The notes beneath the pieces are model-generated. The model was not told the origin of the DNA and ran no database searches. It saw only the letters and a list, made by a program, of their open reading frames with translations. The position numbers were made by a program, and so were the translations under genes. A stretch of 41,649 bases of DNA from a virus (Duplodnaviria; Heunggongvirae; Uroviricota; Caudoviricetes), in the IMG/VR virus record IMGVR_UViG_2660238349_000007, one strand, 5' to 3'. Positions 1-41,210 of this stretch are shown in pieces (within the stretch, counting starts at the first letter, position 1; each line of letters starts with the position of its first letter).

Positions 1-270
<270 letters not shown>

Positions 271-469: not shown

Positions 470-1873
470 TTGAGAATGCCGCGCACTGTAACACATAATC
501 CGGATAGCCCCAATAATGACGATGTTTTAGCCGCATCTGAAAAATGGGACGCCTGTAAACCCCCCTATACCAGCGCACACATGAAAATCTGTGTTGCTGC
601 CGCCAAAATCATCCTCGCTGCTTCCGGCGTGGCTCGCCGTTCCAAATACGAAAAAGAGAACTATCTCCGTATCGATTTCAGCAAAGCCGGTAAGGTTACA
701 TTTTACGCCGAGTTTCCAAAAAAGATGGGCCTCAAGGGTAAAAAGCTCGGCGAGTGGCCGGAGCTCGCTATCCAGCTGGCGCGCGAAAAAGCGCTAGGTA
801 TGGCTGACGGTGGCCTGCGGGCAGAGTCCGTACATGCAGCGCTGGAAATGTACCGGGATGACCTCAAAGCCAAAGTCGCCCGGCAGAAGCTGAGCCCGGA
901 CAGTTTCACAACCTACGGGGTGCGTATCGACCGGATTAAAGCCACGTTCGGCGAGCGCGAGGTGTTCAGCGACGTAACATACAATCGGCTGGTGGAAGTG
1001 CTGGACGAGTGGATCGCCACTCGCTCGAACAATAACGCCCTGGAGTTGTTTGCCGAGCTCCGTCGGTTCTGGAAGTTCTGCGCACCTACTCTTTGCAATG
1101 GCCGCAATGTTGCCGCCAGTCTGCCAGATGATTATGTTTCCTCCCGCGTACAGAAACCCACCCCCACACGGCTTTTTACCGATATTGAATCAATCGCCCG
1201 ACTCTGGCTCAATGTTGCTGCCTGCACCTCTGTACACCAGAAGAATGCTGTTCGCTTCATGATCATCACTGGTGTTCGTCCGATTAATGTCCATAACCTG
1301 CGCTGGGATTACGTTCACGAGGAGGCTGGTGAAATTGTTTATCCGGAAGGGGTTATCGGCATGCGAGGGGCTATGAAAACACAAAAGGCTTTCCGCCTGC
1401 CGATAACGCCTGAGATCCGGCGGATTATCGACGAGCAGAAAGCCTGGCGTGATTCAGTTCCTGAGTGCAACAGGGATTATGTATTTTTGCAGCCACGTGA
1501 TCCAATGCAGCCATTTTCAAAACGATCACTGGATAAGCTGGTGAAAACATACAGCCCGGACGGGGCTGTAAAAGGAATAAAACATGATGGGACTGTTAAA
1601 GGGAAAGACGGTGCATTTAATACGATGTGCCGTAAATTCCTTAAGAGCAATGTTATTGCCTTGATGAAGGAAAGAGGCTATTCCCGCTCAGACCGAAGGG
1701 AAATCAGCCTCCTTTGCCTTCACCACTCCAGCAAGTCAGATGACCCGATGGCAGAACATTACGACTTTTCTGATGAGATTTTACAGGAAGAGATTGCGTT
1801 GAAGCGCGAAGCTTTCGAGGCTCACGAGCGGAGCATACTTGCGCAGGTGGCATTGCTACGGCGGCGAGGTTAA
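470..1873 (+). CDS. int: Tyrosine-type phage integrase
   Basis: 467-aa ORF with AAGGA RBS 8 nt upstream; C-terminal catalytic region with conserved R, H and HY tyrosine (…LCLHHSSK…AEHYDFSD); sits at the prophage edge. Confidence 0.8.
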   Translation: MRMPRTVTHNPDSPNNDDVLAASEKWDACKPPYTSAHMKICVAAAKIILAASGVARRSKYEKENYLRIDFSKAGKVTFYAEFPKKMGLKGKKLGEWPELAIQLAREKALGMADGGLRAESVHAALEMYRDDLKAKVARQKLSPDSFTTYGVRIDRIKATFGEREVFSDVTYNRLVEVLDEWIATRSNNNALELFAELRRFWKFCAPTLCNGRNVAASLPDDYVSSRVQKPTPTRLFTDIESIARLWLNVAACTSVHQKNAVRFMIITGVRPINVHNLRWDYVHEEAGEIVYPEGVIGMRGAMKTQKAFRLPITPEIRRIIDEQKAWRDSVPECNRDYVFLQPRDPMQPFSKRSLDKLVKTYSPDGAVKGIKHDGTVKGKDGAFNTMCRKFLKSNVIALMKERGYSRSDRREISLLCLHHSSKSDDPMAEHYDFSDEILQEEIALKREAFEAHERSILAQVALLRRRG

Positions 1874-2070
1874 TACTGGCTGCGACATTTTTGAATAAAA
1901 GCGTCGACATTTCGGCGCTCATAACGAACTACTTTTGCACTGAAACGAATTGGTGCCAGGATAGCCCGATGACGATGCTTAATATTCCACTCACATAGCG
2001 TTTTCTGTGTAATACCTAACTTTTGGCATACTTCATCCGGGGTGAGTAAATCGTCGGGTTTCTCGCTCAT
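1870..2070 (-). CDS. xis: Excisionase / AlpA-family HTH DNA-binding protein
   Basis: 66-aa ORF beside int with an AlpA-like helix-turn-helix (LLTPDEVCQKLGITQKTLCEW); start overlaps the stop of the upstream helicase gene. Confidence 0.6.
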   Translation of the reverse strand: MSEKPDDLLTPDEVCQKLGITQKTLCEWNIKHRHRAILAPIRFSAKVVRYERRNVDAFIQKCRSQY

Positions 2071-3458
2071 GCTATACCTCTCTTTTTCATGGCATCGAGC
2101 AGGATGTCCTGCACTGTTCGTTTTGAGTTGCGCCGCTCCATCACCATTTCGTCCATAGTGTCGGCAGCAATAATGTGGTGAATAAATACCGGACGATTGT
2201 GTCCGGCCTGTATCTGTCTGGTTGGGCCGATACGTTCAATAATTTGCTGATACTGCTCCAGGTCCCACCAATGTGAGAAAAATACCAGTATGTTTCCGCC
2301 GTCCTGCATGTTCAGACCGTGGCCCGCGCTGGCTGGGTGTGCAAAGAGAACAGGAATCTTTCCGGAATTCCAGTCACGTAGTGTCTGTGGATCCTGGTCG
2401 AGGTGACGACCGCGAGGAAATGCTTTAAGCAAGCGTTCAAGATCGTGTTTCCAGTGATAAGCAACCAGCACAGGTGCGCCAGCTGCTTCGGTCAGTATGC
2501 TGTCCAGCGCCTGTAGTTTGGTGTCATGCAGTTCTGACCAACTTCCGGTGTCATCTGTGTATACTGCGCCGCTGGCGATTTGCAGACACTTCAGTGTCTT
2601 TGCCGCGGCGTTCGGTGCTTCTATGCCTTCGCCATTCAGCTCGAGGAACATTTCCTTTTCCATTTCACGATACTGCTGACGGGCCTTCGGCGGCATATCC
2701 ACGCGGATTACGTTATGGATGGGGTCTTTGATATCGAACCAGTCGGTCGCATCCAGCGAGAGGGTCACATCGGCTAACGCTCGCTGTATTTCACCCTGTG
2801 AGTGAGCAAAAGGCTCCAGTTTGGTCCAGCTCTGCCCCGGAAACTGTATCGATTTGAACCAGCGTGAGGTAAACGCGCCGTAAGTGCGCCCGAGACGTTG
2901 CCCCAGGTCCACAAACCACGATTGTCCCCACAAATCTACCAGGCCGTTCGGTGCTGGCGTACCGGTGAGATTTATCCAGCGCCGGACATACTTGTGCGCC
3001 ACTTTGCCCAGCGCCGCCGCGCGCTTACCACCACCTCGCAGCCGGAAGGATTTTAGCCGGGTGCTTTCATCCGGAATGACAGTACCGAACGGCCATCGTT
3101 CTCCCAATTCTTCAACCAGCCAGACAAGGTTATCGTAGTTGATGGTGAACACGCTTGCGTTGCTGTTCGCCAGCGCCGTAGAGCGCGCTTTGACATTACC
3201 AACAATCGGCTGTACCTCGATATTGCGCAGATGCTTCCATTTCAGCGCTTCATCCGGCCATGTGCTTGCTGCAACGCGTAGCGGCGCGAGGACCAGTGCG
3301 GGGCGTGTTTCTGCCCCTGCCATAAAGAGATCTTCCAGCGTAGTGAGCGTTGCCACGGTTTTACCCATCCCCATCCCTGCCCAGATGTTGCCGCGCAGGG
3401 TCTCGATTTGATGATTGATGATGAGATCTTGGTAGGGACGTGGTTTAAAAGTTATCAT
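2067..3458 (-). CDS. SNF2-family (DEAD/DEAH-like) helicase
   Basis: 463-aa ORF with Walker A GMGKT, a DEST box (VIPDESTRLK) and LTGTPAPN motif III. Confidence 0.8.
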   Translation of the reverse strand: MITFKPRPYQDLIINHQIETLRGNIWAGMGMGKTVATLTTLEDLFMAGAETRPALVLAPLRVAASTWPDEALKWKHLRNIEVQPIVGNVKARSTALANSNASVFTINYDNLVWLVEELGERWPFGTVIPDESTRLKSFRLRGGGKRAAALGKVAHKYVRRWINLTGTPAPNGLVDLWGQSWFVDLGQRLGRTYGAFTSRWFKSIQFPGQSWTKLEPFAHSQGEIQRALADVTLSLDATDWFDIKDPIHNVIRVDMPPKARQQYREMEKEMFLELNGEGIEAPNAAAKTLKCLQIASGAVYTDDTGSWSELHDTKLQALDSILTEAAGAPVLVAYHWKHDLERLLKAFPRGRHLDQDPQTLRDWNSGKIPVLFAHPASAGHGLNMQDGGNILVFFSHWWDLEQYQQIIERIGPTRQIQAGHNRPVFIHHIIAADTMDEMVMERRNSKRTVQDILLDAMKKRGIA

Positions 3459-3481
3459 GAAGAAAATCCCTGATTAGAAAG

Positions 3482-4084
3482 GTGCTCTTGAACATCATGA
3501 ATGTAAAAGATTTATCAATTACAACGGTTCTCTTGGCCGCCCTTTATTTTATGGCTTTTTCTTTTTACAAAGGATACAGCTCATTTTATGGATTCCCTGT
3601 AAGTTTTATTTCTATTGGGATTGAGGAAATAGTTAAGTTTTCTGTTATTGCATTAGGACTTTTGTGCACCTTAGTCGCTTTGCTGCATATTGATACTGAA
3701 GAGAAGAATATTCCATGGGGGGTGTATTTATTTTTCTTCATTTTGGCCTCTTTGCTTTCATACTGGACAATGTATTTATATGGCGGTAGCTCATACCTTT
3801 ATGAAAAATCCATAAGGGATGTGGCTACCCAAGCAATACTATTGGGATTTATTAGCCCTATCAGTGTCAGGGCAGTATCTGTTTTTATTAGGAATGAATT
3901 TAGAATAAAAAACAAAACTCATGGGGTTATGTTTTTTATATCCATAGCAATGCTTCCTTCAGTCCTTGGGTGGGCATGGGCATACTTATCAGATGAGCCT
4001 CTTTTTTATTCTAAAAAATATGATGCTTATATTATCGAAAGCTATAACGGAAAATTTGTCTTGGGGAACTGTAAAAAAAAATAG
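3482..4084 (+). CDS. Hypothetical polytopic membrane protein (AT-rich moron, opposite strand to the surrounding operon)
   Basis: 200-aa ORF with four to five hydrophobic segments; visibly AT-rich; start uncertain (TTG 3482 or ATG 3497). Confidence 0.5.
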   Translation: MLLNIMNVKDLSITTVLLAALYFMAFSFYKGYSSFYGFPVSFISIGIEEIVKFSVIALGLLCTLVALLHIDTEEKNIPWGVYLFFFILASLLSYWTMYLYGGSSYLYEKSIRDVATQAILLGFISPISVRAVSVFIRNEFRIKNKTHGVMFFISIAMLPSVLGWAWAYLSDEPLFYSKKYDAYIIESYNGKFVLGNCKKK

Positions 4085-4213
4085 CTCTGAATTTATGAGT
4101 GTCGAAGGAATTGAGGGGAAATTAATTCCTGTAAGCATAAAAGAAACACAACAACTAAAAGTATGTTTTTTAAAAGCTTCTAAGCTCAAGAAAAATCGCT
4201 CAGAATGATTGTC

Positions 4214-4483
4214 TCACAATATCCCCTCTAAATTTTTGCTATCCAGTACTACCACGGTAAAGCCCAGCTTTCGCAGACGTTCATGCTCGCGCAACTGGTC
4301 AGGCCGTGGTGGTTTGCCGGGGGATTTACATTCAACGAAAACGATACGACCACCGGGTAGCAGGACAATGCGATCCGGTACCGAGCGGTGACCGGGAGAT
4401 ACAAACTTAAAGGCCACTCCGCCAGCTTTTTTCACTTCAGCGACGAGGTGCTTTTCGATAAGGCTTTCACGTTCATAGGCCAT
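4214..4483 (-). CDS. VRR-NUC domain nuclease
   Basis: ORF matching the VRR-NUC pattern (PD…VECK…, basic C-terminus) as recalled; start trimmed to the ATG at 4481-4483, just after the upstream stop. Confidence 0.65.
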   Translation of the reverse strand: MAYERESLIEKHLVAEVKKAGGVAFKFVSPGHRSVPDRIVLLPGGRIVFVECKSPGKPPRPDQLREHERLRKLGFTVVVLDSKNLEGIL

Positions 4484-4772
4484 CTGAATCCCACTCTTCA
4501 AAAAGCACATTCAATTCCAGTTTCTCTGCCAACGCGTTTTCTGCACGTGCGCCGGCAGAGTACTCCCACTCTTTGAGCATATAAATCGTATCGGCACAGC
4601 GAAGCATTGCGAGGCAGATGTCCATGTACTGAGCCTGTGTCAAACCATCGGGTAAAGTTGCGGGGTTAAGCACAATATATCCCTTGTCCGTTAGCCTCTT
4701 TGCTGCGGAATGAAAAGCCGGGCGGTTAAATTGCTCGTAACCGCTCATCGGCCCGGCAACGTAAACGATCAT
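4473..4772 (-). CDS. Nucleoside 2-deoxyribosyltransferase-like protein (DUF4406/DUF1937-like)
   Basis: 99-aa ORF beginning MIVYVAGPMSG, a pattern typical of this fold; commonly found beside phage DNA polymerases. Confidence 0.45.
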   Translation of the reverse strand: MIVYVAGPMSGYEQFNRPAFHSAAKRLTDKGYIVLNPATLPDGLTQAQYMDICLAMLRCADTIYMLKEWEYSAGARAENALAEKLELNVLFEEWDSDGL

Positions 4773-4984
4773 TCTTCGACCACCTTACGCTTTTCACGCA
4801 TATTCTGCATCAGGCAAAAATCAGATCTGCGTTCACTCCATTCCTGATTCAATTCGTGATGTGATTCGCGGTTGGCTTTTGCCCAGACCTTCGCTGCCCG
4901 GTCATATTCGCCGGATTGTTCAAGTCGCAAAGCCTCCCTTGCGGCCCTGTAATAAAGTGGATTGTCCCGGTATTTAAATGACAT
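4769..4984 (-). CDS. Small hypothetical protein, possibly a PerC-like regulator
   Basis: 71-aa ORF translationally coupled to neighbours; the YYRAAREALRLEQSGEYDRAAKVW stretch resembles PerC/Pch-like proteins from memory only. Confidence 0.3.
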   Translation of the reverse strand: MSFKYRDNPLYYRAAREALRLEQSGEYDRAAKVWAKANRESHHELNQEWSERRSDFCLMQNMREKRKVVEE

Positions 4985-4989
4985 AGGAG

Positions 4990-7053
4990 TTAATCCTTAC
5001 GGTAGTGGTACGCCTCAAAACCGCCAGCGTTCAGTGGGATATCGGGTGCCCATTCGGGGTTAGTGGAGAGAAGCGCGGAAAGCGCTTTATCGTTGAAATC
5101 TTCTGTGTCAGGTGCTTCGGTGATCACCTCGTCGTGTACCGTCAACACAATGCTGTAACCGGCATCTTCGATAAGCGGCATGTTTCCGGCCAGAACGTCG
5201 CGGGCGGCTGCCTGGGTGACGTTCTCCACCAGCTTTCCGCCGTAGGTTTTGAGTCGTTGCCATTTACGCGAATAAGAGTTAACACCCATGTAGGTGATAT
5301 TTCCTTTTTCGATAACCGGAGACGGGTAGCATACAGCGCGTCCGGATGGTAGCTGTATGCGCAGCCACGCGCCATCACGTCGGATTTTAAGATAGCCGCA
5401 ATACAATGTTTTTTGCGGTGTGGCGATTGCTGTGCGGACGGTGCGCTCCAGTTCGTACCAGAAATCGCAGGTCGCCGGGTGCGCCCTGCGCCAGAGACGT
5501 TTAAGTGAGTCGCAGGCGATAAATACCCGTTCAGAAAGCCCGTAGGTTGACTTGCGTTTAACCGATTCGTCGTACCAGCTTTTCGCCTCGCGGATAACAT
5601 CGCGGGGAATGTTTGGTAGTGCGGCGTTCGCCAGCTCGTCGAGATCGAGACCGTAAACCAGTGCAAAAGTGATGAAGGCCGACACACCACCACCATAACC
5701 CAGACCGAGTTCCATGACTTTACCGATCTGACGCATGTGTTTATCAACATCATCTGGTGCAATATCGAAAGCTTTTGCATACGCCAGTTTATATAAGTCC
5801 GGACCCGTTCCGGCGTCGTACTCTCTGAATGCATTCAGTTTCCATTCTTCTCCCGCCAGCCATGCCAGCATACGGCCTTCAATGTTCGACAAGTCACTTA
5901 CCACCAGCTTTTTGCCTGTTGGCGCGATAATGCAGCCACGTAACGCTGAACTGGTTAGTTCCATGATATTGTCAAACAGCAGGTCTGCACATCCGGCTTT
6001 CAGTGCTTCGATGCCTTCGTCTATTTGTTCCTGTTTTAGTGAAGGGCGGGGAAGGTTCTGGGGCTGGAATAGCCGTCCGGCCCAACGACCGGTACGTGAC
6101 GCCCCGCAGAACTGTAGCGTACCGCGTAAGCGCCCGTCGTGGCTTACGCCTTTCATCAGTGCCTTGTATTTACTGGTGCTGGTAGTACTGGCCTGCAGGC
6201 GGATAGCCAGCAGTTCTTTCACGGCAGATGGTAAATCGGGGTCGGCAATACGACGTTCCAGAGTACTGCGTTGCATGTCTGGTAGCTCCACACCGTAGGA
6301 TTCAACAATGTGCTTAATCAACGCGTCTCGTTGTGTGGCTGCCTGCACTTCGCCATCAGTCATTTCCTGTGTACGCTTTGCTAGGCGCTTTTGTTCCTGG
6401 TCTACCGCTTCGATCGCAGCGCGTGCGAGTTGCATGTCCATGCAGACGCCCCGGTCATTGATCTGCTGATCACGATGCCAGAGCGCCAGTTCTGTCCCCT
6501 GATAATTCCACTTCGGCAGACGTTTATAGACTTCGCGCATTGCCTCGATATCCAGTCCGGCGTAAGCAACAAAGCGCCGCCATTCTTCCGGGTGGGTTTT
6601 ACTGGTGGCCCGACGCAGTTTGCTGTTTTTCGGGCGTGGCTTACAGAACAGCTGGATCAGCGCTTTACCTTCTTTGTCCTTCGCTTTGTCTTGCGGGACG
6701 CCTAGTACTTCGCAGAGTTCCCCCAGAGACCCCGGGAGACCGTGCGCCAGCGCCTGCACCATCGTGTCGCGCCAACGTTCGACTGGCGGTGCCAGTCGCG
6801 GCATTGCATAACGCAGAACGGTGCGGTCGAAGTGAGAGTTATGGAAATAAAGCAGGGTTTCAGGGTCTGCGATTGCTTCGTATAAGCCGTGTGGAATACC
6901 ACCACCGGCAGTGATATCCCACACGTTTACTGGCCCGTCGTTGATAGCCCATGCGAAAAGCATCACTTCAACGCCTTCGGCATACGCATGGGTACCGTTG
7001 TTGATCGGAATGTCACAATAGGTTTCCAGGTCGCCCCATAGTATATTGGACAT
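4990..7053 (-). CDS. Family-A DNA polymerase with N-terminal 3'-5' exonuclease domain
   Basis: 687-aa ORF; N-terminal exonuclease-like region (WGDLETY…) and C-terminal family-A palm motifs (…[12 protein letters not shown]…, …LTVHDEV…); GAGGA RBS. Confidence 0.88.
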
Positions 7054-7114
7054 AAAATATCCTCATATGGTATATGGTTAAATGCTAGATATCATGAATT
7101 AAAGGAGACAACTA

Positions 7115-7804
7115 ATGACTGTGGGTAATAAGAGACAGCCTAATGGATTACCTGAATATTATTGTCACCGTGGTAACGACATAAAAGATGCGATAGTTCG
7201 GGATTTTATTATTCAGCCTGTTGCACACCTGAAACTTATTACTGGACAAACTAAAACCAGTTATTCCGGTTATCCGTTAACCGATCAGTACTATTGTTTT
7301 TCATTTAAAAAACGCTCTGATGAAAATTGTACAGGGGCTTTTTTCTGTGGTAGAGATGTTGCAAAGGATTTCATTCGGCGTATCGGTTGTACAGAGCTGC
7401 CGTTATTTAATCCTATGAAATCGGATACCAGTGCAGCAATAGAACGTTCCGGTTCTGGCTCAGGTAGTTCTGGTATTACTGTCAAGCCAAATGCTGACAA
7501 AAAGCTATTTATAGACGCAGCTCGTCTGTTAATGACGCTGTGGGATTCAACAAGTAAGGGACAAACCCCACTGGCGTCGGTTCTTAATGAAGCAATTTCT
7601 GGTGGTATAGATAAACCTCCAGAAATTAGACATGTAGTGGCGGTTAATACAATGTTGGGTAACACAAAAAATACTTTAACTGGTTTGCTGGATAAAGCAA
7701 GAGCGAAGTATCCTGATGTGTTATTCAGAGATTTTGATTTCACGCCTCTTAACGAGATTGTAAAACGTTCAAAATCATATAATAAGCATCCCCCTTGTTA
7801 TTGA
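7115..7804 (+). CDS. Hypothetical two-domain Cys-rich protein (moron on opposite strand)
   Basis: 229-aa ORF with strong RBS AAAGGAGA; Cys/His-rich N-terminal half, SGSGSGSSG linker, helical C-terminal half; AT-rich compared with flanks. Confidence 0.5.
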   Translation: MTVGNKRQPNGLPEYYCHRGNDIKDAIVRDFIIQPVAHLKLITGQTKTSYSGYPLTDQYYCFSFKKRSDENCTGAFFCGRDVAKDFIRRIGCTELPLFNPMKSDTSAAIERSGSGSGSSGITVKPNADKKLFIDAARLLMTLWDSTSKGQTPLASVLNEAISGGIDKPPEIRHVVAVNTMLGNTKNTLTGLLDKARAKYPDVLFRDFDFTPLNEIVKRSKSYNKHPPCY

Positions 7805-8439
7805 GTATCAGACACTGTATTGGTAGGAAGGCCTATCATTTCATTTAATGTCTCTCGATGTACTGCTGGTGCTAAAGGGACTGGCGGTGCGTCTGTTGGA
7901 AGCAGTTCTTTAGCTTCGGGCCATACATCCAGTAATCGTTTTACTGTCCGAACTTTATTTAGAGCCGCGCTGACGTTCTGTATGATTTCGGTTTCATCAC
8001 TTTTAATTTGTGTGTAGAGAGCATCAAAGCTATAAAACTCCGTTACCAGAGGATCTTCGCCAAGTAGAGTAAATTCTGCAGGTGCTATTTTATTAATATG
8101 CTCGGGGGCTCCTGATTCATAACCTCTGTAGTTGCCATTGAAATAAATGTTTGCTCTGGCTCCAGCCAGATTGAGATATATGCAGCAATCTTTTCGAATT
8201 AAAGAACTATTGGTTTTTAATGAATCAGGGATTTTTGTTACCATGGATTCAATCTTTTTTATATTTTTTAATATTTCAGCTTCTTTCTCTACGCCCCCGA
8301 TAGCTGCAAGCCGAACACGTTCGGCCCATTCAACACGAGCAGCTCGTAGTGCTGATTTACGTTTGGGGATACCCGCTTTCTCAAGTGCGTTATTGATGAT
8401 TTGAGTTTTAAGGTGATTAGTTAATACGGGCTGTGACAT
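7798..8439 (-). CDS. Hypothetical protein
   Basis: ORF in the early-left operon; start trimmed to MSQPVL with GAGGGA RBS; no recognisable motif. Confidence 0.5.
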   Translation of the reverse strand: MSQPVLTNHLKTQIINNALEKAGIPKRKSALRAARVEWAERVRLAAIGGVEKEAEILKNIKKIESMVTKIPDSLKTNSSLIRKDCCIYLNLAGARANIYFNGNYRGYESGAPEHINKIAPAEFTLLGEDPLVTEFYSFDALYTQIKSDETEIIQNVSAALNKVRTVKRLLDVWPEAKELLPTDAPPVPLAPAVHRETLNEMIGLPTNTVSDTQ

Positions 8440-8490
8440 TATTCTTTCCCTCATGAGATACCCCAGCACGTAGCTGGGGGATGAATATTT

Positions 8491-9039
8491 TTAAATTAGT
8501 GCTTCAGCATCAGCACCTTCGCTGATATCGTCGAAATCGTCAGCGCTTGCCACTCCGCCGCCAGCGAATGCATCGCCGTCTCGCAGGAACTGGACTCCTC
8601 CGAGTGAGGCATTAATGCGTTTACCGAAATTATTGTCCTGTGCCCAGATATCGATAACGGCGTTTACATAGCACCCTGCATAGGGACGTCCATCAGCCTG
8701 AATTAGTGGCGAACGATCGCGATCAAGAACAGCTGGGCGCGCTTTGTTAGCAGCGTTCAGGAAGAAATTGCCGGGAAAGCCTTCATACTCTGCTTTTTCA
8801 TCACCATCATGCAGGCACAGATTGAGTTTTTTCTCCAGCTGGTTATAAATGGACTCCCACTTCTCCCCCCATTTTTCCTTCGCTACCTGCTTCATAGCTT
8901 TACGGATTTCTTCCAGTTGTGGGTGTTTGGGTGACATTAAAAATACTGCGGAGAAACGTGGATCGCCTTCGCCGTTTACTGTTTTAGCTTCAAACAGAGA
9001 CGGGAAGGCCAGACGAACATTGTTCAGCTTCAGTTTCAT
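8491..9039 (-). CDS. Phage SSB-like protein (DUF2815-like)
   Basis: 182-aa ORF with acidic C-terminal tail (DDFDDISEGADAEALI) typical of SSB partner-binding tails; sits beside the DUF2800-like nuclease. Confidence 0.55.
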   Translation of the reverse strand: MKLKLNNVRLAFPSLFEAKTVNGEGDPRFSAVFLMSPKHPQLEEIRKAMKQVAKEKWGEKWESIYNQLEKKLNLCLHDGDEKAEYEGFPGNFFLNAANKARPAVLDRDRSPLIQADGRPYAGCYVNAVIDIWAQDNNFGKRINASLGGVQFLRDGDAFAGGGVASADDFDDISEGADAEALI

Positions 9040-9054
9040 GGGTATTTCCTTAAA

Positions 9055-10356
9055 TCAGATGAGGTCTGCGGTTAGCGTATCGTCGGATACGTCGTCGAAA
9101 TCATTTACAGGGTTGATATTGAGTGCGGGGCGTGGGTCTGACTCGGGAACGACGGTGGGTTTACCATCAGCTCGTGTTATCAGTGCCTCGACTTTTGACC
9201 AACGGCGCGGACTGGCCTTTTTGATAAGTTTTTCGGCTTTTGTGGGACTAATAAGTTTAAAGTCGAATACTTCTTCAGTTTTGTACCTGAACTGGTCCTT
9301 CAGAAGTGCGCGAGCTGCCTCTTCATCAATCCAGGCCCGGTTACCTTGTTTTCCTGTTACCAGTTTAAACCCCGGTACCGGATGTCCGGCATTGAGTTCA
9401 TTGTGAACCCGGTCCCGTACTGCCTTTAGCCAGGATTCAATAAAGTCGGCCTGGCTATAGATCTCCGCAAGCTGCTCAATGGTTAACAGAGGTACACGTG
9501 CACTGGCATTGGTGATTATTTCGCTGACAGGCTTTGTCAGATCTTCAAAATCGCTGGCCGCTGTTTGTAAATGCTGCATTTTCTGGGCAGTGCAAATAGC
9601 TTTTGCTTTACAGAAGCGGCACTGTTTTTCTCCAGGTATGAAGTTTTCCAGCGGTAGTGTCTCAATGCCTTCGCATTCAGCAATATTGAGAACAAGGATC
9701 GCACTGGTTGCGGCCTCCTGTGCCCGTTCACCGAAAGACTGAAGTTCCTGTACGGTTAACGACCATTCTGAAACGTGGTTGAGCCTTGGCTGGTGAATAA
9801 ATAATCTTACAGTCTCAAAGTCATACAGCATGCTGAATTGTTCGAGCGCACCCAGAGCATACAGTTGTAGTTGCTCATTTTGTTCTGCATCAATGCGGAC
9901 GCCTTTGCCATATTTCAGGTCGTGGATTTGTAATTCGTTACCCGCGATGATTATGCCGTCGGCAGTTCCGAAAGATTCTTCCACACCCGTTATATGTGAG
10001 AAATCAACACGTTGTTCAACCAATAGTTCATTATTCTGTGCAAGAGTCCAGACCGTATCAACATACCGGCCAACGGCTTCGACCATTTCATCATCCACCT
10101 GTGGGCCAGATGTATCATCAGGATTTTCGCGAAGGGGGTATGAGCCGAGAAACATAGAAACATTGCATCCGGCGTAGTGTTCCGGATGGCTTTGCCTGTT
10201 TCGTAGAACTTTTTCAGCAAGCGCGTGCGCTGCAGTGCCCTCGATTGCAAAAGTTGTTTCTTTATCCGGTTGTGTAGCCTCCAGCGCCAGACTTCCTGGG
10301 CAGCGCATCCATCGATGCGCTGATGATGGAGAAAGTTGTGCATGAACGTCTGGCAT
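9055..10356 (-). CDS. PD-(D/E)XK / Cas4-like nuclease (DUF2800-like)
   Basis: 433-aa ORF; N-terminal [14 protein letters not shown] and a C-terminal Cys cluster (CRFC…C) match the RecB/Cas4-type nuclease pattern. Confidence 0.65.
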
Positions 10357-10358
10357 GA

Positions 10359-11261
10359 TTAACCCTCCAGTGCTTTTTCAGCCAGGGTGATTACTTCAGC
10401 GAGATTTTCATCCGTTACTTCACCAAGTTTCCTGGCTCCCTGTTTTTCCAGAATTGCAATAGCTTCTGCCCGGTAACCCCCTTTTGCTAACTGGAGGATC
10501 AACCCTTCAGCTTGTTTGCGTAGTGCCGCGAAATCAATTGTATGGTCATCTTTGGCGTCATTATTCTGGCTGGAATTTGCTGCGTCTCTGCGTGCAAATT
10601 CTTCCTGCAGCTGAAGGTACTCAACACGGTTGATCTCGATATGGCCTTTTTTCAGCATCTCGTTCAACTTGCGTAAGGTGTGGAGTTCACTGGCTGCTGT
10701 GCCGGATACATTTTTGACGTAAAACGGCCCCGTGCGTTCTCCATCTTTGTTACTGGCCTTTTTCGGCTTAACTTCATCACGCCCATCCGCAGGTGCATCA
10801 AGTAGCTGCTCGGCAAAAGCACGCCGCTCGCCGATGGTTGGCAGGTCGTCCCAGAACTTAAGGATGTTACGGGACAGGTCCAGGAGAGCTGGTTTAAGCA
10901 GCGCCCTGGCTCGTTTGACGCCCTGCAATGCGCTGTCGAGAGCATCAATCTGAACTACTCGTTTATCGCCTTCAGCATCACGGTAGGCAACAGCACGTTG
11001 CAGCATGTCTTCTGTGATAGGGGTGGCTACCGGGTAGAAACCAGCCAGTGCGATAACGTCGCTGAACTCCAGATCATCCAGTGTCATTGCCGCTGACATA
11101 TTTTCAGTTTCAGTTGCTGTATCCCGACATTCCTGCACTCGTGAAATCGTGTCAGGATGCATAACAATACCTGATGCCATTGTGCGGATAAGACGTTCAA
11201 GCAGCGCATTATGTTGTGCCAGAAGTTGATTATTAAGTTCGAGACTGGTTTCTAAACTCAT
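10359..11261 (-). CDS. Hypothetical early protein
   Basis: 300-aa ORF, codon usage consistent with neighbours; translationally coupled to the upstream small ORF (ATGA overlap). Confidence 0.5.
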
Positions 11262-11407
11262 ACTGTGGTCCTCGCTACAAGGAGAATGAAAGTGATGATC
11301 AGACCGAGCGCAGTGGCAACGGCCAGACCGGTCATCAAATCGAAGTTTTTACGGCGATAACGGAGAACATCGCGCCCCGTCAGTCGATAGAGGTGTTCAG
11401 GTTTCAT
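11258..11407 (-). CDS. Small single-pass membrane protein (49 aa, absent from the ORF track)
   Basis: Manual translation: [49 protein letters not shown]; hydrophobic C-terminal helix; stop overlaps the downstream start. Confidence 0.35.
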   Translation of the reverse strand: MKPEHLYRLTGRDVLRYRRKNFDLMTGLAVATALGLIITFILLVARTTV

Positions 11408-11523
11408 CGGTTGTATTCCTTTTTTCATATCGGGGAGCGCGCTGTTGCGAGTGCGCTTTCAGACATAAAAAAGCCCGTCACTTGCGGCGGGCAAAGACTA
11501 CACACAGCAATTACATGGATGAT

Positions 11524-11718
11524 TCAGTTGGTATTGTGCGTACGTGGTACCACAAGGTTGAAGCGGACACGCCAGTGCGTTGCAATGGTATGCAGGAAAG
11601 CACCACATCCAGGGCAGTGCTCATAACATTCGTTGATTTGGTATCGTTTTGGCTTTGGTGTCTGAAGCTGTGTTTGGCAAGCAGGGCATTCACCTTTGAG
11701 CGGTTTATACGTTTTCAC
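11524..11718 (-). CDS. Small zinc-ribbon protein
   Basis: 64-aa ORF with GTG start and AGGAA RBS; CPAC…(20 aa)…CPGC four-Cys motif. Confidence 0.4.
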   Translation of the reverse strand: MKTYKPLKGECPACQTQLQTPKPKRYQINECYEHCPGCGAFLHTIATHWRVRFNLVVPRTHNTN

Positions 11719-12040
11719 GCCGTTTCCTCATTCAGTTCACTTTGGTGGTTCGGCAGCTTCGACTTGTATCAGTAGACAGTGCTTCGCCGCACCCCAAAGG
11801 GAACTTACTGACCCGTATTGCCGACATCCTGTCCCGCCACGGTCCCGACGCATGGTTTAGAGTCGCGCCGTTCGACTTGTGGCTAAAGATACAATTTGAG
11901 TTGTATTGTGTAAACCACAAATGTGGTATTTTGTGGGGTGTGAATACTACTTTATTGATATTTAAGTGAATTTAATTTGTAAGACTTTACAAATGGGGTA
12001 AGGGAGGCTGTTACGCCTCCCGATATTTACGGTGGGAATA

Positions 12041-12664
12041 CTAACGTTTACGGCGGTAAATACGGTGTTCGATCATTACACCTATGATCTGTAAGTTCAT
12101 ATCTGCACTACGAAAAATAGGGTAATCAGGATTTAGGGGGATTAATTCAAAGTCGTCGATGCCGATTCCTAATGGACGGTATTTTTTAAATGTAGCTTCG
12201 TGACCGTCGTTTTTGGCGACAACAAACTCCCCTGGTGCAGGACATAGATCAGGATCGATGATAACAATGTCTCCTTCTTTAAACTCTGGTTGCATGCTGT
12301 CGCCATCGATACGTAATGCGAAGCATGTTTCTGGAATGTCAGAGTCTGCCAAAATATATTCAAATTCCCCTGTCAGATCTGTTATGTCTCTTGCTTCTGT
12401 AAGCTCTCCTGCCTGAACGTAACTTAATATAGGTATGCGTCTGGTACTTATCTCCGCGAGAGGCATAATATTTTTACCGTTCAGTAGCCAGTCTGGGCTA
12501 CATTTCAAGGCCTTAGCCAGATCCAGAAGATTGCGTGGCTTTCTGGTTCGTCCACTTTCGATGGATTCTATGGATTGTTGGCTAACCCCTGCAGAATTCG
12601 CTACTTCCACTTGAGTCATTCCTAATTCCAAACGACGTGCTTTAAAACGGGCTGCGAGAGACAT
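12041..12664 (-). CDS. cI: CI-like repressor (HTH-XRE plus S24 LexA-like peptidase domain)
   Basis: N-terminal HTH (LGMTQVEVANSAGVSQQSIESIESG); C-terminal autocleavage domain with catalytic Ser/Lys context (GDSMQPEF…KKY); start trimmed to MSLAARF. Confidence 0.85.
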   Translation of the reverse strand: MSLAARFKARRLELGMTQVEVANSAGVSQQSIESIESGRTRKPRNLLDLAKALKCSPDWLLNGKNIMPLAEISTRRIPILSYVQAGELTEARDITDLTGEFEYILADSDIPETCFALRIDGDSMQPEFKEGDIVIIDPDLCPAPGEFVVAKNDGHEATFKKYRPLGIGIDDFELIPLNPDYPIFRSADMNLQIIGVMIEHRIYRRKR

Positions 12665-12784
12665 GGGATTAGTCCTTCTGGGTTGTATTAATGTGTATCT
12701 CCACATTAAAAACAATTTTTGTTGTATTTGACAAACCTCGTTTGTTGTTGCTAAATACCACTAAAATTGTATGAGGTGAAAGCA
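12665..12784. promoter_or_regulatory. Divergent immunity control region (PRM/PR-like) with operator palindromes
   Basis: Intergenic between divergent cI and cro; perfect palindrome TTAATGTG-tatctc-CACATTAA at 12688-12709; repeated GTTGTATT; TTGACA at 12728-12733. Confidence 0.5.
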
Positions 12785-12997
12785 ATGACCTTAGCGACCC
12801 GAGTAAAAGAACGACGTAAAGAACTCAAAATGACGCAAGTTACGTTGGCTGAGCTCACAGGAGTGAGCCAGCAGGCAATAAACAGAATTGAAAGTGGTGT
12901 TATTGCTCGGCCACGTTATCTTCTTGAAATGTCTATAGCATTGGATTGCGACCCTAATTGGCTGTTGTATGGCTCACAAAACGATAAAAAGGCTTAA
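12785..12997 (+). CDS. cro: Cro-like HTH-XRE regulator
   Basis: 70-aa HTH protein (MTQVTLAELTGVSQQAINRIESG) divergent from cI; GAGGTG RBS 6 nt upstream of ATG 12785. Confidence 0.65.
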   Translation: MTLATRVKERRKELKMTQVTLAELTGVSQQAINRIESGVIARPRYLLEMSIALDCDPNWLLYGSQNDKKA

Positions 12998-13000
12998 CCC

Positions 13001-15193
13001 ATGTCCGATAGCAAACCATGGGGAGCTACGCCTGATGAGTGGTTTCATTTCGACCTGGTATTGGGGAGAACTGATCATCTTCTGCCAGTTGTATGTAACC
13101 CCGGTGCGACCATATCCCCTGATAGTAAACTGAAAGCGTTGGGTAAGACGCCGAGTCGCTATAACCGGGACCGCCAGGTCACCGGTATTGCTCAATGGAC
13201 CGGGCATGTTGTTACTGAGCATGATTTTGCCCGCTGGTCGAATGAACCGGATTATGGCATCTGCGTGCGTACAGGCCATGGCTGGCTGGCGCTGGACTGT
13301 GATAGCGAAGATGAAGACATTCAGGCAGATATTCGTAAAACGCTTGTGCAACTTCTGGGTGAGTTGCCGCCACGACGCTGGCGAGCAAACAGTAATAAGT
13401 GTCTGTATCTGCTGGCCGTTGATGGTGATTTCCGTAAGCGTATCCATCGCCTGGCGGGGGATATGGGCATTATCGAGTTGCTGGCGAACGGGCAGCAGTT
13501 CGTTGCCTGCGGTACGCACAGCAGCGGCGCGCGTATTGAATGGGACGGCGGTTTGCCGGATGAACCTCCGGCTATTACTGGTGAGCAGCTTGAAACGCTG
13601 TGGCAGCGCCTGGCTGAACAACTCCCTGTGTCGGTAACCACCGAAGCGGGCAACACGAAGATGCGCGACCGATCAGCATTCACGCCCGGCGCGACGGATG
13701 ATACAGCTGAATATCTTGATGCCAATGGCTGGACGCTGCTGGATGGTGCAAATGGTGAACGATATATCCGCTGTCCGTTTGAAGACGGCCACAGTAGCGG
13801 GGGCGATCCAACAAGCACAGTTTATTTTCCTGCGGGAACCGCGGGCTTTGAGCAGGGGCATTTTAAATGCCTGCATGCCAGTTGTGCGCATCGTGATGAC
13901 GGAGATTTCCTTAATGCCATCGGGATCCGCAACGACGATTTCGAAGATCTGACCAGCACCGAAGTGGCGGAACCTTTACCGCTGCCTGCTTTCGAGCGTG
14001 ATAAATGGGGGCGTATCGAGGCAACCATCAGCAACGCAGCCAAAGCAGTAGTACGCCCTGATTTTGTGGACATCGATATTCGCTTTGACCTGTTCCGCGA
14101 CGAAATCATGTTTGCCCCGGCAGGATCCGGACAATGGCGGGCATTCACCGATGCGGATTATGCGCGCCTGCGCATCACGATGGAAAAGCGGGGATTTAAA
14201 CCTGTTGGCCGTGAACTTATTCGCGATGTGGTGTTACTTGCAGCCGATGAACAACCATTCGATTCAGCGATCGCCTGGCTGAACGGACTGGAGTGGGATG
14301 GGGTGCCGCGCATCGAATGTTTCTACCATACGCACTTCGGTACCGCCGACACGCCTTATACCCGTGCGGTGTCTATGTACATGTGGACCGCGTTGGCGGG
14401 GCGAGTACTGGAGCCAGGCATCAAAGCGGATATGGTGCCGATCCTCGTTGGTCCGCAGGGCTGCGGTAAGTCTTCCGGAGTGGAGGCACTGAGCCCTGAT
14501 CCTGCGTTTTTTACTGAAATCTCTTTTGCCGAAAAAGACGATGATCTCGCTCGAAAAATGCGTGGTCGGCTGGTGGCAGAGATTGGTGAACTGCGCGGAC
14601 TTAATACCAAAGAGCTGGAGTCAATCAAAGCGTTTGTGACGCGTACTCACGAAAACTGGATCCCGAAATACCGGGAGTTCGCCACCCAGTTTCCTCGTCG
14701 CCTGGTGTTCGTTGGTACCACCAATGAGGACGAATTCCTTGCGGACAAGACTGGTAACCGTCGCTGGCTCCCCGTGGAAGTGTCGAAAGTCGACGTGAAA
14801 GCGATAAAAAGAGATCTCCTTTTACTTTGGGCTGAGGCTCGTGAGGTGTTTCAGCGTCTGGGGGGTATCCAGTTCCGTGAGGCTGAACAACTGGCAGCGA
14901 GTGTCCATGAACAGTACACCATCAAGGATGCTTGGCTTGAAACGGTAGAGAAATGGCTCGACACGCCAGACCTGATGACTAATGAACTTCCGCGAAATTG
15001 CGAATTTTTACGCGCAAGTGATGTTTTGCGTGATGCGATTGGGCTAAATCCTGACCGCATCGGAAAACGCGAAGAAATGCGAATTAGTAATGTTTTGCAA
15101 AATTGCGGGTATAAGCGTGCCCAAAGGCGAATTGGGGGGAAAATGACTCGAATTTTTGAGGCGGTGTCCCAACCTGTACCAGCCTCAAAATAG
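13001..15193 (+). CDS. Primase-helicase (primase/polymerase N-domain plus D5/VirE-type P-loop NTPase)
   Basis: 730-aa ORF; Walker A GPQGCGKSS, Walker B-like RLVFVGTTNE; N-terminal acidic primase-like motifs (LALDCDSEDED). Confidence 0.75.
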   Translation: MSDSKPWGATPDEWFHFDLVLGRTDHLLPVVCNPGATISPDSKLKALGKTPSRYNRDRQVTGIAQWTGHVVTEHDFARWSNEPDYGICVRTGHGWLALDCDSEDEDIQADIRKTLVQLLGELPPRRWRANSNKCLYLLAVDGDFRKRIHRLAGDMGIIELLANGQQFVACGTHSSGARIEWDGGLPDEPPAITGEQLETLWQRLAEQLPVSVTTEAGNTKMRDRSAFTPGATDDTAEYLDANGWTLLDGANGERYIRCPFEDGHSSGGDPTSTVYFPAGTAGFEQGHFKCLHASCAHRDDGDFLNAIGIRNDDFEDLTSTEVAEPLPLPAFERDKWGRIEATISNAAKAVVRPDFVDIDIRFDLFRDEIMFAPAGSGQWRAFTDADYARLRITMEKRGFKPVGRELIRDVVLLAADEQPFDSAIAWLNGLEWDGVPRIECFYHTHFGTADTPYTRAVSMYMWTALAGRVLEPGIKADMVPILVGPQGCGKSSGVEALSPDPAFFTEISFAEKDDDLARKMRGRLVAEIGELRGLNTKELESIKAFVTRTHENWIPKYREFATQFPRRLVFVGTTNEDEFLADKTGNRRWLPVEVSKVDVKAIKRDLLLLWAEAREVFQRLGGIQFREAEQLAASVHEQYTIKDAWLETVEKWLDTPDLMTNELPRNCEFLRASDVLRDAIGLNPDRIGKREEMRISNVLQNCGYKRAQRRIGGKMTRIFEAVSQPVPASK

Positions 15194-15346
15194 AGGTTGG
15201 TACATTTTAACTAATTGAATTTAAAGGTCAGTACCAACTGTACCATCTGTACCAACCTAATTACTAAGAACCCCATATATATGTATAAGTCGCTTGGGGA
15301 AAAGGTTTGAAAAGAGCTGGTACAGGTGGGTACAGGTTGGTACAGG
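15172..15346. repeat. Iteron array (TGGTACAG motif, inverted and direct copies); candidate replication origin
   Basis: TGTACCA at 15175, 15230, 15239, 15248 (about 9-bp spacing) and GGTACAG at 15319, 15329, 15339 (10-bp spacing), flanking an AT-rich core with CCCCATATATATG. Confidence 0.55.
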
Positions 15347-15474: not shown

Positions 15475-15897
15475 ATGCGTAATATTCAACAGGTTTTAGA
15501 GCGCTGGGGTGGCTGGGCAGCGAGTGAAGGTGGTAGCGTCTACTTTCCTCCTGTTGCAGCCGGGTTTAAGAATCTGCTACCCGCGACGCAGTCTGGAAGG
15601 CTGAAATGCAGTGACAATGACGGTCTTATCATCAACTCCGCTATGAGCTGCCTGAAGAAAAAAGATCCGTATCTGTGCACGCTCCTTGAGTGGCATTACG
15701 TCCAGGCCATGCCCGTGCGGGCGATGGGTGAGAAGCTCGGCGTATCTCACACCCACGTTCTGAAGAGGCTTCAGGCGGCAGAGGGATTTATTGACGGTTG
15801 CTTAGCCATGCTGGATGTGGTGCTCGAAATGGATCAGTCGGTTCAGTCAAAGCCTCAGGCTATCAGGACTTTGCGTAGGAGCTGCTCGGCGGCATAA
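15475..15897 (+). CDS. Q: Late-gene antiterminator Q-like protein
   Basis: 140-aa ORF resembling Q/QuuD-type antiterminators as recalled (MR.IQ.VLERWG.WAA…, Cys pairs); sits upstream of the lysis cassette. Confidence 0.6.
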   Translation: MRNIQQVLERWGGWAASEGGSVYFPPVAAGFKNLLPATQSGRLKCSDNDGLIINSAMSCLKKKDPYLCTLLEWHYVQAMPVRAMGEKLGVSHTHVLKRLQAAEGFIDGCLAMLDVVLEMDQSVQSKPQAIRTLRRSCSAA

Positions 15898-39855: not shown

Positions 39856-39917
39856 AAGAAAATGCAGAGATTACGGCTAACTGGCATCATCCCCGGTTTT
39901 TATTCAGGGGATCCATC

Positions 39918-40313
39918 ATGCTTATTGGCTATGTCCGCGTATCAACAAATGACCAGAATACAGAATTGCAGCGTAACGCGCTGGAGTGCGCAGGATGTGA
40001 ACTGATTTTTGAAGATAAAATCAGCGGAACAAAATCAGCCAGACCGGGATTGAAAAAACTGCTCAGAACGCTATCAGAAGGAGATACGCTGGTTGTCTGG
40101 AAGCTGGACAGACTGGGGCGCAGTGTGCGGCATCTTGTCGTGCTGGTGGAGGAGTTGCGCGAACAAGGTGTTAATTTTAGTAGTTATGTTATTACAGGTG
40201 GGGGATTTCTCCCCCTTATGCAGATTTTCTCGTTAACTATTGGCGAAGTGGCCATATTTTTCTGTTTTTTAAAAAACTATCTTCAACTATATAACTGCAA
40301 CAATGTTCACTAA
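39918..40313 (+). pseudogene. Truncated serine DNA invertase (Gin/Hin/Pin family)
   Basis: First ~87 aa match the invertase catalytic domain (MLIGYVRVSTNDQNTELQRNAL…LVVWKLDRLGRS…GVNF); downstream sequence diverges into AT-rich unrelated sequence with no HTH domain. Confidence 0.7.
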
Positions 40314-41082: not shown

Positions 41083-41210
41083 TTTATTATTTTCCTTTGC
41101 TCATAAATTTAAATTGTTTGAGTATCTCATAAAATATAAGGAGGTGGTTAAGGTTGTTGATCGCATATAATAGCTATTGAAAGTCAAGAACTCGGTTTTA
41201 TGTTCTACCA

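Follow-up and report, generated by a model that had tools for sequence, protein, structure and literature searches.

A widespread replication module with a candidate iteron origin and apparently swappable cargo genes in the early region of a lambdoid-regulated Escherichia coli prophage

We analysed the early region (positions 2067-15193) of IMGVR_UViG_2660238349_000007, an IMG/VR record of a virus of the Caudoviricetes, of which the whole stretch of 41,649 nucleotides is called the window. The region encodes a set of phage replication proteins in two divergent early operons, interspersed with genes that related phages lack. The first 20 kb of the window are 100% identical, except for one base, to the chromosome of E. 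coli MS20658, and the prophage (~40 kb) is inserted with yfhL on one side and yfhH on the other. Its regulation is lambda-like: besides an integrase and an excisionase-like helix-turn-helix (HTH) protein it has CI (S24) and Cro as a divergent pair, the antiterminator Q, a holin of the lambda family, an endolysin and an Rz-like gene. The structural genes, in contrast, are those of a myovirus, among them DUF3383, DUF3277 and baseplate J; the tail-fibre genes are accompanied by the remnant of an invertase gene. Related records are the Escherichia phages vB_EcoM-611R5, 689R2 and 606R2 (97.5% identity over 51% of the region). With good confidence, which we attach jointly to all parts of this reading, we regard the early region as that of a temperate E. 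coli myovirus prophage under lambdoid regulation, in which a conserved and already known replication-recombination core carries a layer of swappable cargo.

Profile searches with each protein upheld every family assignment that a preliminary description had made for this region, and all of the families named there lie within it (Table 1); the Pfam match of the VRR-NUC protein is weak and is backed by PHROG 93. The inventory given there was right for these families and left out Nmad5, the ANR regulator, two opposite-strand open reading frames (ORFs) and two ORFs at the head of the leftward operon. The translated polymerase contains Exo I (DLE), Exo II (NSHFD) and Exo III (YAGLD) of the proofreading domain and motifs A (DLSNIEGR), B and C (VHDE) of the polymerase domain; its matches to Pol I structures in the PDB are limited to the motif A-B region. 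The VRR-NUC nuclease is probably a junction or branch resolvase. The ANR regulator, encoded between the polymerase and DUF4406 genes, belongs to a family of small proteins that counteract AraC-type activators. In the DUF2800 nuclease, the translation shows the Cas4-like four-cysteine pattern C19...C246-x2-C249-x5-C255. No ssb gene is annotated in the prophage other than that of the gp2.5-type SSB (a protein that binds single-stranded DNA), which ends in ...ADDFDDISEGADAEALI. This tail (...DDFDDISEGADAEALI) resembles the acidic tail of the DUF2800 nuclease (C-terminal codons at 8491-8541 and 9055-9105, respectively), with the shared pattern xxDFDD[IV]S......[DA]LI, and the two counterparts in Staphylococcus phage 47 are likewise alike in a DDFD tail (...EDDFDELDTDDEDFL and ...EDDFDKL). 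By analogy with the tail of T7 gp2.5, this suggests that both proteins may dock at one common partner site. The primase-helicase consists of an AEP Prim-Pol domain (~residues 1-320, with a Cys/His cluster) and a VapE-type P-loop helicase domain, the latter matching PDB 7pds, a VapE-like protein deposited as six chains, at 8e-34.

Table 1. Annotated features at the left end and in the early region of the prophage, in window coordinates
Feature	Position	Strand	Evidence
Tyrosine integrase; prophage left end, adjoins host yfhL (window 1-261)	470..1873 (PGAP start 476)	+	Phage_integrase 4e-07; PGAP 'tyrosine-type recombinase/integrase'
Small HTH protein, excisionase-like; last gene of leftward early operon	1870..2070	-	HTH_17 1.3e-05; PGAP helix-turn-helix regulator
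SNF2-family helicase/translocase; core	2067..3458	-	SNF2-rel_dom 1.5e-11 and Helicase_C
Opposite-strand low-GC membrane-protein ORF, frameshifted; slot 1	3482..4208	+	no Pfam, PHROG or PADLOC match
VRR-NUC nuclease (PD...ExK); core	4214..4483	-	PHROG 93 'endonuclease' 1.6e-32; Pfam VRR_NUC weak (1e-3, below cut-off); PGAP name
DUF4406 protein, 99 aa, predicted minimal nucleoside 2'-deoxyribosyltransferase (NDT)/DNPH1 fold; accessory, slot 2	4473..4772	-	DUF4406 9e-34
ANR-family small transcriptional regulator, 71 aa	4769..4984	-	NF033650 70.2 bits (cut-off 32)
Family A DNA polymerase with 3'-5' proofreading domain, without 5' nuclease domain	4990..7053	-	DNA_pol_A 5e-14
Opposite-strand ORF, 229 aa, in a stretch of GC ~0.40; slot 3	7115..7804	+	no Pfam, PHROG, PADLOC or NCBIfam match
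Nmad5-family protein ('putative nucleotide modification protein'); accessory, slot 3	7798..8439	-	Nmad5 1.7e-54
T7 gp2.5-type SSB/annealing protein (DUF2815, Enc34 ORF6 family), acidic C-terminal tail	8491..9039	-	Enc34_ssDNA-bd 2.4e-44
DUF2800 Cas4-like PD-(D/E)XK nuclease, four cysteines, acidic C-terminal tail	9055..10356	-	DUF2800 5.9e-110 (full length); PDDEXK_1 2.2e-10
300-aa protein; first large gene of leftward operon	10359..11261	-	phrog_6784 1.5e-179
Small ORF (49-56 aa), head of leftward operon	11258..11428	-	phrog_11981 1.4e-36; PGAP CDS
CI-type repressor (HTH and S24 LexA-like autopeptidase)	12041..12664	-	Peptidase_S24 2e-21; HTH_3 1e-12
Cro-type HTH protein; first gene of rightward operon	12785..12997	+	HTH_3 2e-14
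Primase-helicase fusion, in lambda O/P position	13001..15193	+	Prim-Pol 1.9e-10 (N-terminal 324 aa); VapE-like 2.3e-60; PHROG primase and helicase families
Candidate origin, iteron array	15165..15346		at least six (A)GGTTGGTACA repeats, pointing in both directions, that flank AT-rich stretches
Q-family late antiterminator; end of early region	15475..15897	+	Phage_antitermQ 5e-42

By tblastn, the same genes occur in the same order in four phages, namely Yersinia phage YeP4, 611R5, the virulent Dhillonvirus jat and, in part, Staphylococcus phage 47; in the annotated regions of jat and 47 the gene order likewise matches. The leftward order DUF2800-SSB-(slot)-PolA-ANR-(slot)-VRR-NUC-(slot)-SNF2 is shared by jat, YeP4 and 611R5. 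Identity across the core is 93-99% to 611R5 (ANR excepted), 59-74% to YeP4 (SNF2, VRR-NUC, ANR, PolA, SSB, DUF2800 and primase-helicase), 32-53% to jat and, for the part present, 29-33% to phage 47. For the SNF2 protein, amino-acid identities are 96.5% (611R5), 73% (YeP4) and 53% (jat), and for VRR-NUC 93% (611R5) and 73% (YeP4); ANR is 64% identical in YeP4 and only partly kept in 611R5. The 300-aa protein has 99% identity to that of 611R5, and its C-terminal 58 aa are 71% identical to YeP4. Homologues of the polymerase were found by tblastn in 1,726 phage records, which include virulent Dhillon-, Jersey-, Kaguna- and Chiviruses as well as the temperate Staphylococcus Triavirus 47 and Streptococcus Javan prophages, and the polymerase allele itself is present in 158 of 5,426 complete E. 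coli genomes.

This gene set has been published. A 'duf2800-gp2.5-polA module' was named in phages of Firmicutes and has the same context in most Gram-negative phages (PMC8093625), and the replication module of Enc34, described in a study of the structure and function of the Enc34 SSB family, comprises a primase, a presumed transcription factor, a polymerase, a VRR-NUC protein, a helicase and four hypothetical proteins (PMC5686142). The ANR regulator is probably the counterpart of that presumed transcription factor. The replication equipment of this prophage had been called unusually self-sufficient for a lambda-style phage, which is not borne out by its match to a published module or by the number of phage records with polymerase homologues: the module is widespread and already described. 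The accompanying observation that the phage relies on its own replication proteins in place of lambda O and P stands, as the Prim-Pol/VapE gene is the only one between cro and Q, and the annotation of the whole prophage shows neither an initiator nor a loader of the O/P type; the lambdoid phages mEp235, SPN3UB and Rac-SA53 have O/P-type genes in the position of the Prim-Pol/VapE gene. In O/P-type replication, genes downstream of cro/cII encode an O-type initiator that binds the origin and a P- or DnaC-type protein that loads the host DnaB helicase. The module is a common route by which phages, temperate ones included, replicate without O/P-type initiators, and it gives no pointer to modified DNA.

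What is new here is a candidate origin immediately after the primase-helicase gene, whose repeats change along with the helicase domain. The iteron array begins inside the last codons of this gene and contains six copies of GGTTGGTACA in 180 bp (at most one mismatch); the whole window has seven, as compared with 1.96 expected, and none of 100 shuffles reached seven. Arrays that likewise flank AT-rich DNA lie at the same place after the homologous primase-helicase genes of YeP4 (L013 4295-4480; about nine copies of AGGTTGTCTA) and 611R5 (L005 14093-14356; about nine copies of AGGTGACGG). The YeP4 primase-helicase is 73% identical over its full length, and its iterons are related to those of the window, with AGGTTG in common. 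In 611R5 the Prim-Pol half alone is kept (62% identity over 324 aa), the helicase half being unrelated and of the DUF5906 type, and the iterons are unrelated as well. Because the iterons co-vary with the helicase half, the array is likely the cognate origin of the protein and the C-terminal half likely gives the specificity, which argues for a candidate origin that is exchanged together with its specificity determinant as a cassette. Phage P4 alpha and SaPI Rep, self-loading primase-helicases of mobile elements, would be comparable by analogy. The array offers a cheap experimental handle on the origin specificity of this primase-helicase family, which is common in phages and other mobile elements.

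From these sequence features we infer a scheme in which the Prim-Pol/VapE protein would recognise the iteron-flanked AT-rich origin that directly follows the 3' end of its gene, self-load as a hexamer independently of a host loader and then lay primers, which would be extended by the proofreading family A polymerase. The SNF2 translocase and the VRR-NUC branch nuclease would process forks and junctions, and the DUF2800 nuclease and SSB, a pair that occupies the place of the lambda Red genes, would probably do the same job as Red. Another view of the leftward genes is that polymerase, DUF2800 nuclease, SSB, VRR-NUC and SNF2 together form a recombination-repair module like lambda Red, while host Pol III, recruited by the primase-helicase, would carry out bulk replication. 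The set does lie in the leftward operon where lambda has exo, bet and gam, the gp2.5 family is counted among the single-strand annealing proteins (PMC8093625), and the cassette of primase-helicase and candidate origin is exchanged separately from the leftward core. Nevertheless we judge this view improbable: the primase-helicase was found together with the polymerase core in every relative examined, the polymerase keeps its full proofreading and polymerase motifs, a separate bacterial-type ssb gene is absent from the duf2800-gp2.5-polA module (PMC8093625), and the Enc34 authors treat the set as a replication module (PMC5686142).

The second component of the region is the variable content between the core genes. 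A blastn alignment with 611R5 breaks exactly at 3448-4235, 4484-4772 and 7054-8490, and, as part of the joint reading given above, we regard these gaps as three slots that hold swappable cargo, here DUF4406, Nmad5 and the two opposite-strand ORFs. The content of slot 1 differs in 611R5. Here its ORF, a predicted membrane protein, is split by an A9 tract at 4065-4073; in MS20658 the tract is A8 and the ORF is intact (236 aa), so that the extra A cuts the protein from 236 aa to 200 aa, a difference that could reflect phase variation or an error of homopolymer sequencing or assembly. The slot 3 ORF between the polymerase and Nmad5 genes has, at the same place in 611R5, a different opposite-strand ORF of 209 aa; the window ORF has the look of a moron that the prophage expresses. 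At the position in 611R5 that matches window 4773-4990, between polymerase and VRR-NUC, lies a gene for a 253-aa TIR-domain protein (L005 3105-3866, minus strand) with matches to PADLOC PDC-S35 (1e-108) and Pfam CAP12-PCTIR_TIR, the CAP12/Pycsar-type TIR (3e-31). Another 611R5 protein (1458-2375) matches TIR weakly. The spaces between the core replication genes behave like hotspots for cargo or defence genes.

The DUF4406 gene fills 4484-4772, precisely one of the alignment breaks, and shares 11 nt with the gene on one side and 4 nt with that on the other. It is absent by tblastn from 611R5, YeP4, jat and phage 47, and the allele is present in 72 of the 158 polymerase-bearing complete E. coli genomes. 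The polymerase of 611R5 is 98.7% identical in protein sequence, yet this phage has neither DUF4406 nor Nmad5. Homologues of DUF4406 were found in 639 phage records, including phiKO2 gp58 and hundreds of actinophage proteins, and the family has 17,860 representatives at 50% clustering (E <= 1e-3). One homologue with 64% identity is rac19 of the lambdoid Rac-SA53, located in a nin-like region after the O/P-type genes ydaU and ydaV. A functional link of DUF4406 to the polymerase, as had been suggested from their proximity, is not supported by these distributions, since 611R5 and YeP4 share the core without the gene and fewer than half of the polymerase-bearing genomes carry the allele. We regard DUF4406, within the same joint reading, as an optional passenger and neither a partner of the polymerase nor a DNA-modification enzyme; a role as a nucleotide-pool or counter-defence accessory is plausible.

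Nmad5 is comparably mobile. Its homologues occur in 154 phage records, Stx phages included, and their positions are unrelated: mEp235 has the gene between N/Nun and cIII, SPN3UB after O/DnaC and ZRG1 between terminase and portal. It is present in 58 E. coli genomes, in 26 of them at 95% identity or more, and absent from 611R5 and YeP4. The AlphaFold2 model of the protein (pLDDT 85) is a helical bundle with a small beta sheet, in which we recognised neither an enzyme-like fold nor a catalytic site. No His, Cys or Asp is invariant in the alignment, and conservation is highest in WPEAKELLP and in LNxMIGLP near the C-terminus. The nmad5 gene lies in the thymidine-hypermodification cassette of M6/SN1-like phages (PMC9476957), and the one experimental lead on it is that in a Dhillonvirus single substitutions in nmad5 escape the Tmn defence system, while its deletion does not (PMC11846954). 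We read Nmad5 as a mobile accessory gene and not as a sign of modified DNA.

Modified virion DNA had been raised as a possibility; in such a view DUF4406, perhaps together with Nmad5, would work with the polymerase to place a non-canonical base or to make its precursor. Some observations speak for it: the NDT-family protein DmtZ hydrolyses dAMP and moves the deoxyribose 5-phosphate to the Z base (PMC12884076), Nmad5 has its place in the M6-like cassette (PMC9476957), DUF4406 retains a nucleophile motif (see below), and its reading frame overlaps neighbouring genes of the replication operon. Going by PGAP names across all prophage genes, no dUMP hydroxymethylase, 5-hydroxymethyldeoxyuridine (5-hmdU) DNA kinase, aGPT-Pplase, PurZ, DpdA or glycosyltransferase is annotated, nor any DatZ/MazZ/DutZ, PurA-like or dUTPase-like gene. 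Homologues of DUF4406 or Nmad5 reside in the O/P-type lambdoids Rac-SA53, mEp235, HK542 and SPN3UB and in Stx phages. DmtZ matched no Pfam model and therefore belongs to a family other than DUF4406, and Nmad5 has no enzyme-like fold. We rejected a polymerase specialised for a modified base on its score of 17.9 bits against NCBIfam phage_DpoZ_1 (cut-off 500) and on the near-identical polymerase that serves 611R5 without both genes. Because no partner enzymes are annotated, the two suggestive genes are cargo that phages can dispense with and that ordinary lambdoids have too, and the sibling polymerase is so similar, we consider base modification very unlikely, and we expect the virion DNA to be canonical. 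Annotation as Nmad5 and DUF4406 suggests modification, yet both are mobile, dispensable cargo and should not be taken for markers of modified genomes.

The preliminary description had named a lack of conserved catalytic residues in the deoxyribosyltransferase-like protein among the findings that would speak against its reading, and in DUF4406 putative catalytic residues are conserved. In 46 enterobacterial homologues S72, A75 and E78 are invariant and Y4 and G74 at least 90% conserved; all five are invariant in homologues down to 35% identity (actinophages), and the S, G, A and E of the motif S72-x-G74-A75-x2-E78 are invariant in 40 further representatives. An AlphaFold2 model built on the 46-sequence alignment (pLDDT 90.7, pTM 0.83) shows the alpha/beta flavodoxin-like fold of the NDT superfamily, with E78 within helix 73-84. 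Its best PDB matches by Foldseek are NDTs, DNPH1, MilB and BcmB (probability 1.00, TMq 0.65-0.78, 16-22% identity). In DNPH1, with S98-x-G100-x3-E104, the spacing is that of S-x-G-x3-E in DUF4406 and agrees with the published residues Y24, D80 and E104. The motif Ser presumably stands at the position of DNPH1 Ser98, where NDTs that bind a 5'-OH have Asp. A 5'-monophosphate substrate fits because Ser replaces this Asp. In mycobacteriophage HokkenD gp159, DUF4406 (8e-22) is fused to a MazG-like PRA-PH pyrophosphohydrolase; a Pfam search of the 40 longest close DUF4406 representatives gave DUF551 once and DUF7768 three times and was otherwise uninformative about fusions. Model and motif together suggest that DUF4406 is probably an enzyme, most likely a minimal N-glycosidase of the NDT superfamily that is active on (deoxy)nucleoside 5'-monophosphates. 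The conserved S-x-G-A-x2-E site and the MazG fusion give a lead for assays with such (deoxy)nucleoside monophosphates as substrates.

The slot shared with a TIR protein invites a more specific view, in which DUF4406 is a counter-defence N-glycosidase that destroys a nucleotide-derived immune signal or substrate or rebalances nucleotide pools attacked by host defences. The protein could then represent a previously uncharacterised minimal (~95-aa) class of NDT-superfamily N-glycosidase, carried by thousands of phages as swappable counter-defence or pool-editing cargo that shares its slot with the sibling's TIR protein (PDC-S35), and the slot between polymerase and VRR-NUC would be a defence/anti-defence hotspot. 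Cleavage of an N-glycosidic bond is also the reaction of TIR NADases, and TIR-domain chains, such as that of the plant NLR RPP1, are among the weaker Foldseek matches of DUF4406. The gene is patchy, mobile and dispensable, the slot of 611R5 holds a candidate defence protein, and the neighbouring family Nmad5 is the site of Tmn escape mutations (PMC11846954). If this were true, the slot would be a hotspot swapping two kinds of N-glycosidase-fold protein with opposing roles in the conflict between phage and host. We regard it as doubtful, if less remote than a Red-like role of the core: PADLOC gave no defence match for DUF4406 (nor for the two opposite-strand ORFs, Nmad5, the 300-aa protein or ANR), the MazG fusion points to ordinary (deoxy)nucleoside monophosphate metabolism, and the 99-aa protein has no obvious extra binding domain.

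Several points weigh against our reading of a known core with dispensable cargo and an active DUF4406. In the NDT superfamily the catalytic Glu sits at the N-terminus of helix 3 and is positioned by a Tyr that ends strand 1; the putative equivalence of Y4 and E78 with Y24 and E104 of DNPH1 is drawn from motif, fold and topology. Comparison of DUF4406 with the PDB by phmmer and profile search returned nothing relevant, hhalign of the DUF4406 alignment against a human DNPH1 sequence gave a probability of 0.2, and a BLOSUM45 local alignment was meaningless. The third catalytic residue, which in NDTs is Asp (Asn in DmtZ) ~24-26 residues before the Glu, is not conserved: D51, 27 residues before E78, is kept only in enterobacterial homologues, those of actinophages having Arg or Ser there, and at position 53 (25 residues before E78) Cys stands in this protein and Asp or Ser in its actinophage counterparts. 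The C-terminal third, with which each subunit of an NDT dimer completes its partner's active site, is missing from DUF4406 as well. The protein ends 21 residues past the Glu, at 99 aa, and its structural targets have 119-158 aa (TMt 0.45-0.66); so truncated, the protein might be inactive or need a partner. Given the plausible active site that is retained and the DmtZ precedent, pool manipulation could, judged from sequence alone, still alter DNA composition. The four ORFs that lack a family match could hide an unrecognised enzyme, and that the polymerase acts as bulk replicase, and not in repair or recombination, is an assumption taken over from T7. A literature search for vB_EcoM-611R5, 689R2 and 606R2 found no paper.

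Outside the replication genes, the ~610 bp that separate the cI end from the leftward operon's first early gene (11428-12041) contain no annotated gene and presumably hold the leftward operator and promoter (OL/PL); a consensus promoter and terminator scan of 11200-13100 did no better than on shuffled sequence. At the matching place 611R5 has two opposite-strand ORFs. No RNA genes were detected in the window by Rfam (gathering threshold) or ARAGORN. The right end of the prophage (~39900-41100) has a truncated DNA invertase gene beside duplicated tail-fibre and tail-fibre-assembly genes, a possible remnant of a host-range switch, and an 845-bp hypothetical gene in the part of the window with the lowest GC content (0.386).

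Among known systems, DUF4406 resembles DNPH1/Rcl, MilB, BcmB and the NDTs in its predicted alpha/beta fold and, going by motif and topology, presumably also in the Tyr at the end of strand 1 and in S-x-G-x3-E with the Glu at the putative nucleophile position. This Glu is preceded by Ser and not Asp, presumably as in the monophosphate hydrolases. DUF4406 differs from DNPH1 and the NDTs in length (99 aa as compared with ~130-160 aa), in that the general acid Asp is not conserved (Cys53 here) and in having no detectable sequence similarity to solved structures. The fusion in HokkenD parallels DmtZ of the phages Ghobes and Wayne, an NDT-superfamily protein that is free-standing or fused to an NTP pyrophosphatase; in Z-genome phages DmtZ and DutZ form a pair or a fusion, in which an NDT-family dNMP hydrolase/transferase is supplied by a dNTP pyrophosphatase (PMC12884076). 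DmtZ differs in its size (~145 aa), in having no Pfam match according to its authors and in always lying beside PurZ0, DutZ and DpoZ. The prophage does not belong to the Z-genome (2-aminoadenine) systems, as the polymerase scores far below the DpoZ cut-off and PurZ- or DutZ-type genes are not annotated. Nor does it have the thymidine-hypermodification cassette of M6/SN1, since Nmad5 stands alone, with none of the enzymes of PMC9476957 annotated in the prophage or matched in the ORFs of the region.

The primase-helicase resembles VapE/VirE-type self-loading primase-helicases (PDB 7pds), in which one polypeptide combines a primase and a P-loop helicase and lies beside short iterons at AT-rich DNA; here the primase domain is of the AEP/Prim-Pol type, and origin binding and self-loading are predicted. 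The regulatory architecture is lambdoid (int/xis, divergent CI (S24)/Cro, Q and a lambda-family holin lysis cassette), yet the replication genes are not of the lambda O/P kind. The phages 611R5, 689R2 and 606R2 and YeP4-6 are of the same prophage type with the same core, and all have an iteron array 3' of the primase-helicase gene; 611R5 is 96-99% identical in DNA over most core genes. They differ from the window in having neither DUF4406 nor Nmad5, and 611R5 further in its TIR-domain PDC-S35 protein, its immunity region, its DUF5906-type helicase half and its iterons. The closest match of the core as a whole is the duf2800-gp2.5-polA module, known from Enterobacter phage Enc34/'Nazgul-like', Chi-, Jersey-, Kaguna- and Dhillonviruses, Staphylococcus Triavirus and Streptococcus Javan prophages, with which it agrees in families and order (DUF2800, DUF2815 SSB with acidic tail, PolA, regulator, VRR-NUC, SNF2 and primase-helicase): the prophage has the DUF2800 nuclease, the acidic-tailed DUF2815 SSB, a colinear PolA followed by VRR-NUC and SNF2, and a primase nearby. 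Compared with that module, the set here lies inside a lambda-type frame of int/xis, CI/Cro, Q and lysis genes together with myovirus structural genes, is divided between two divergent early operons and has three cargo slots.

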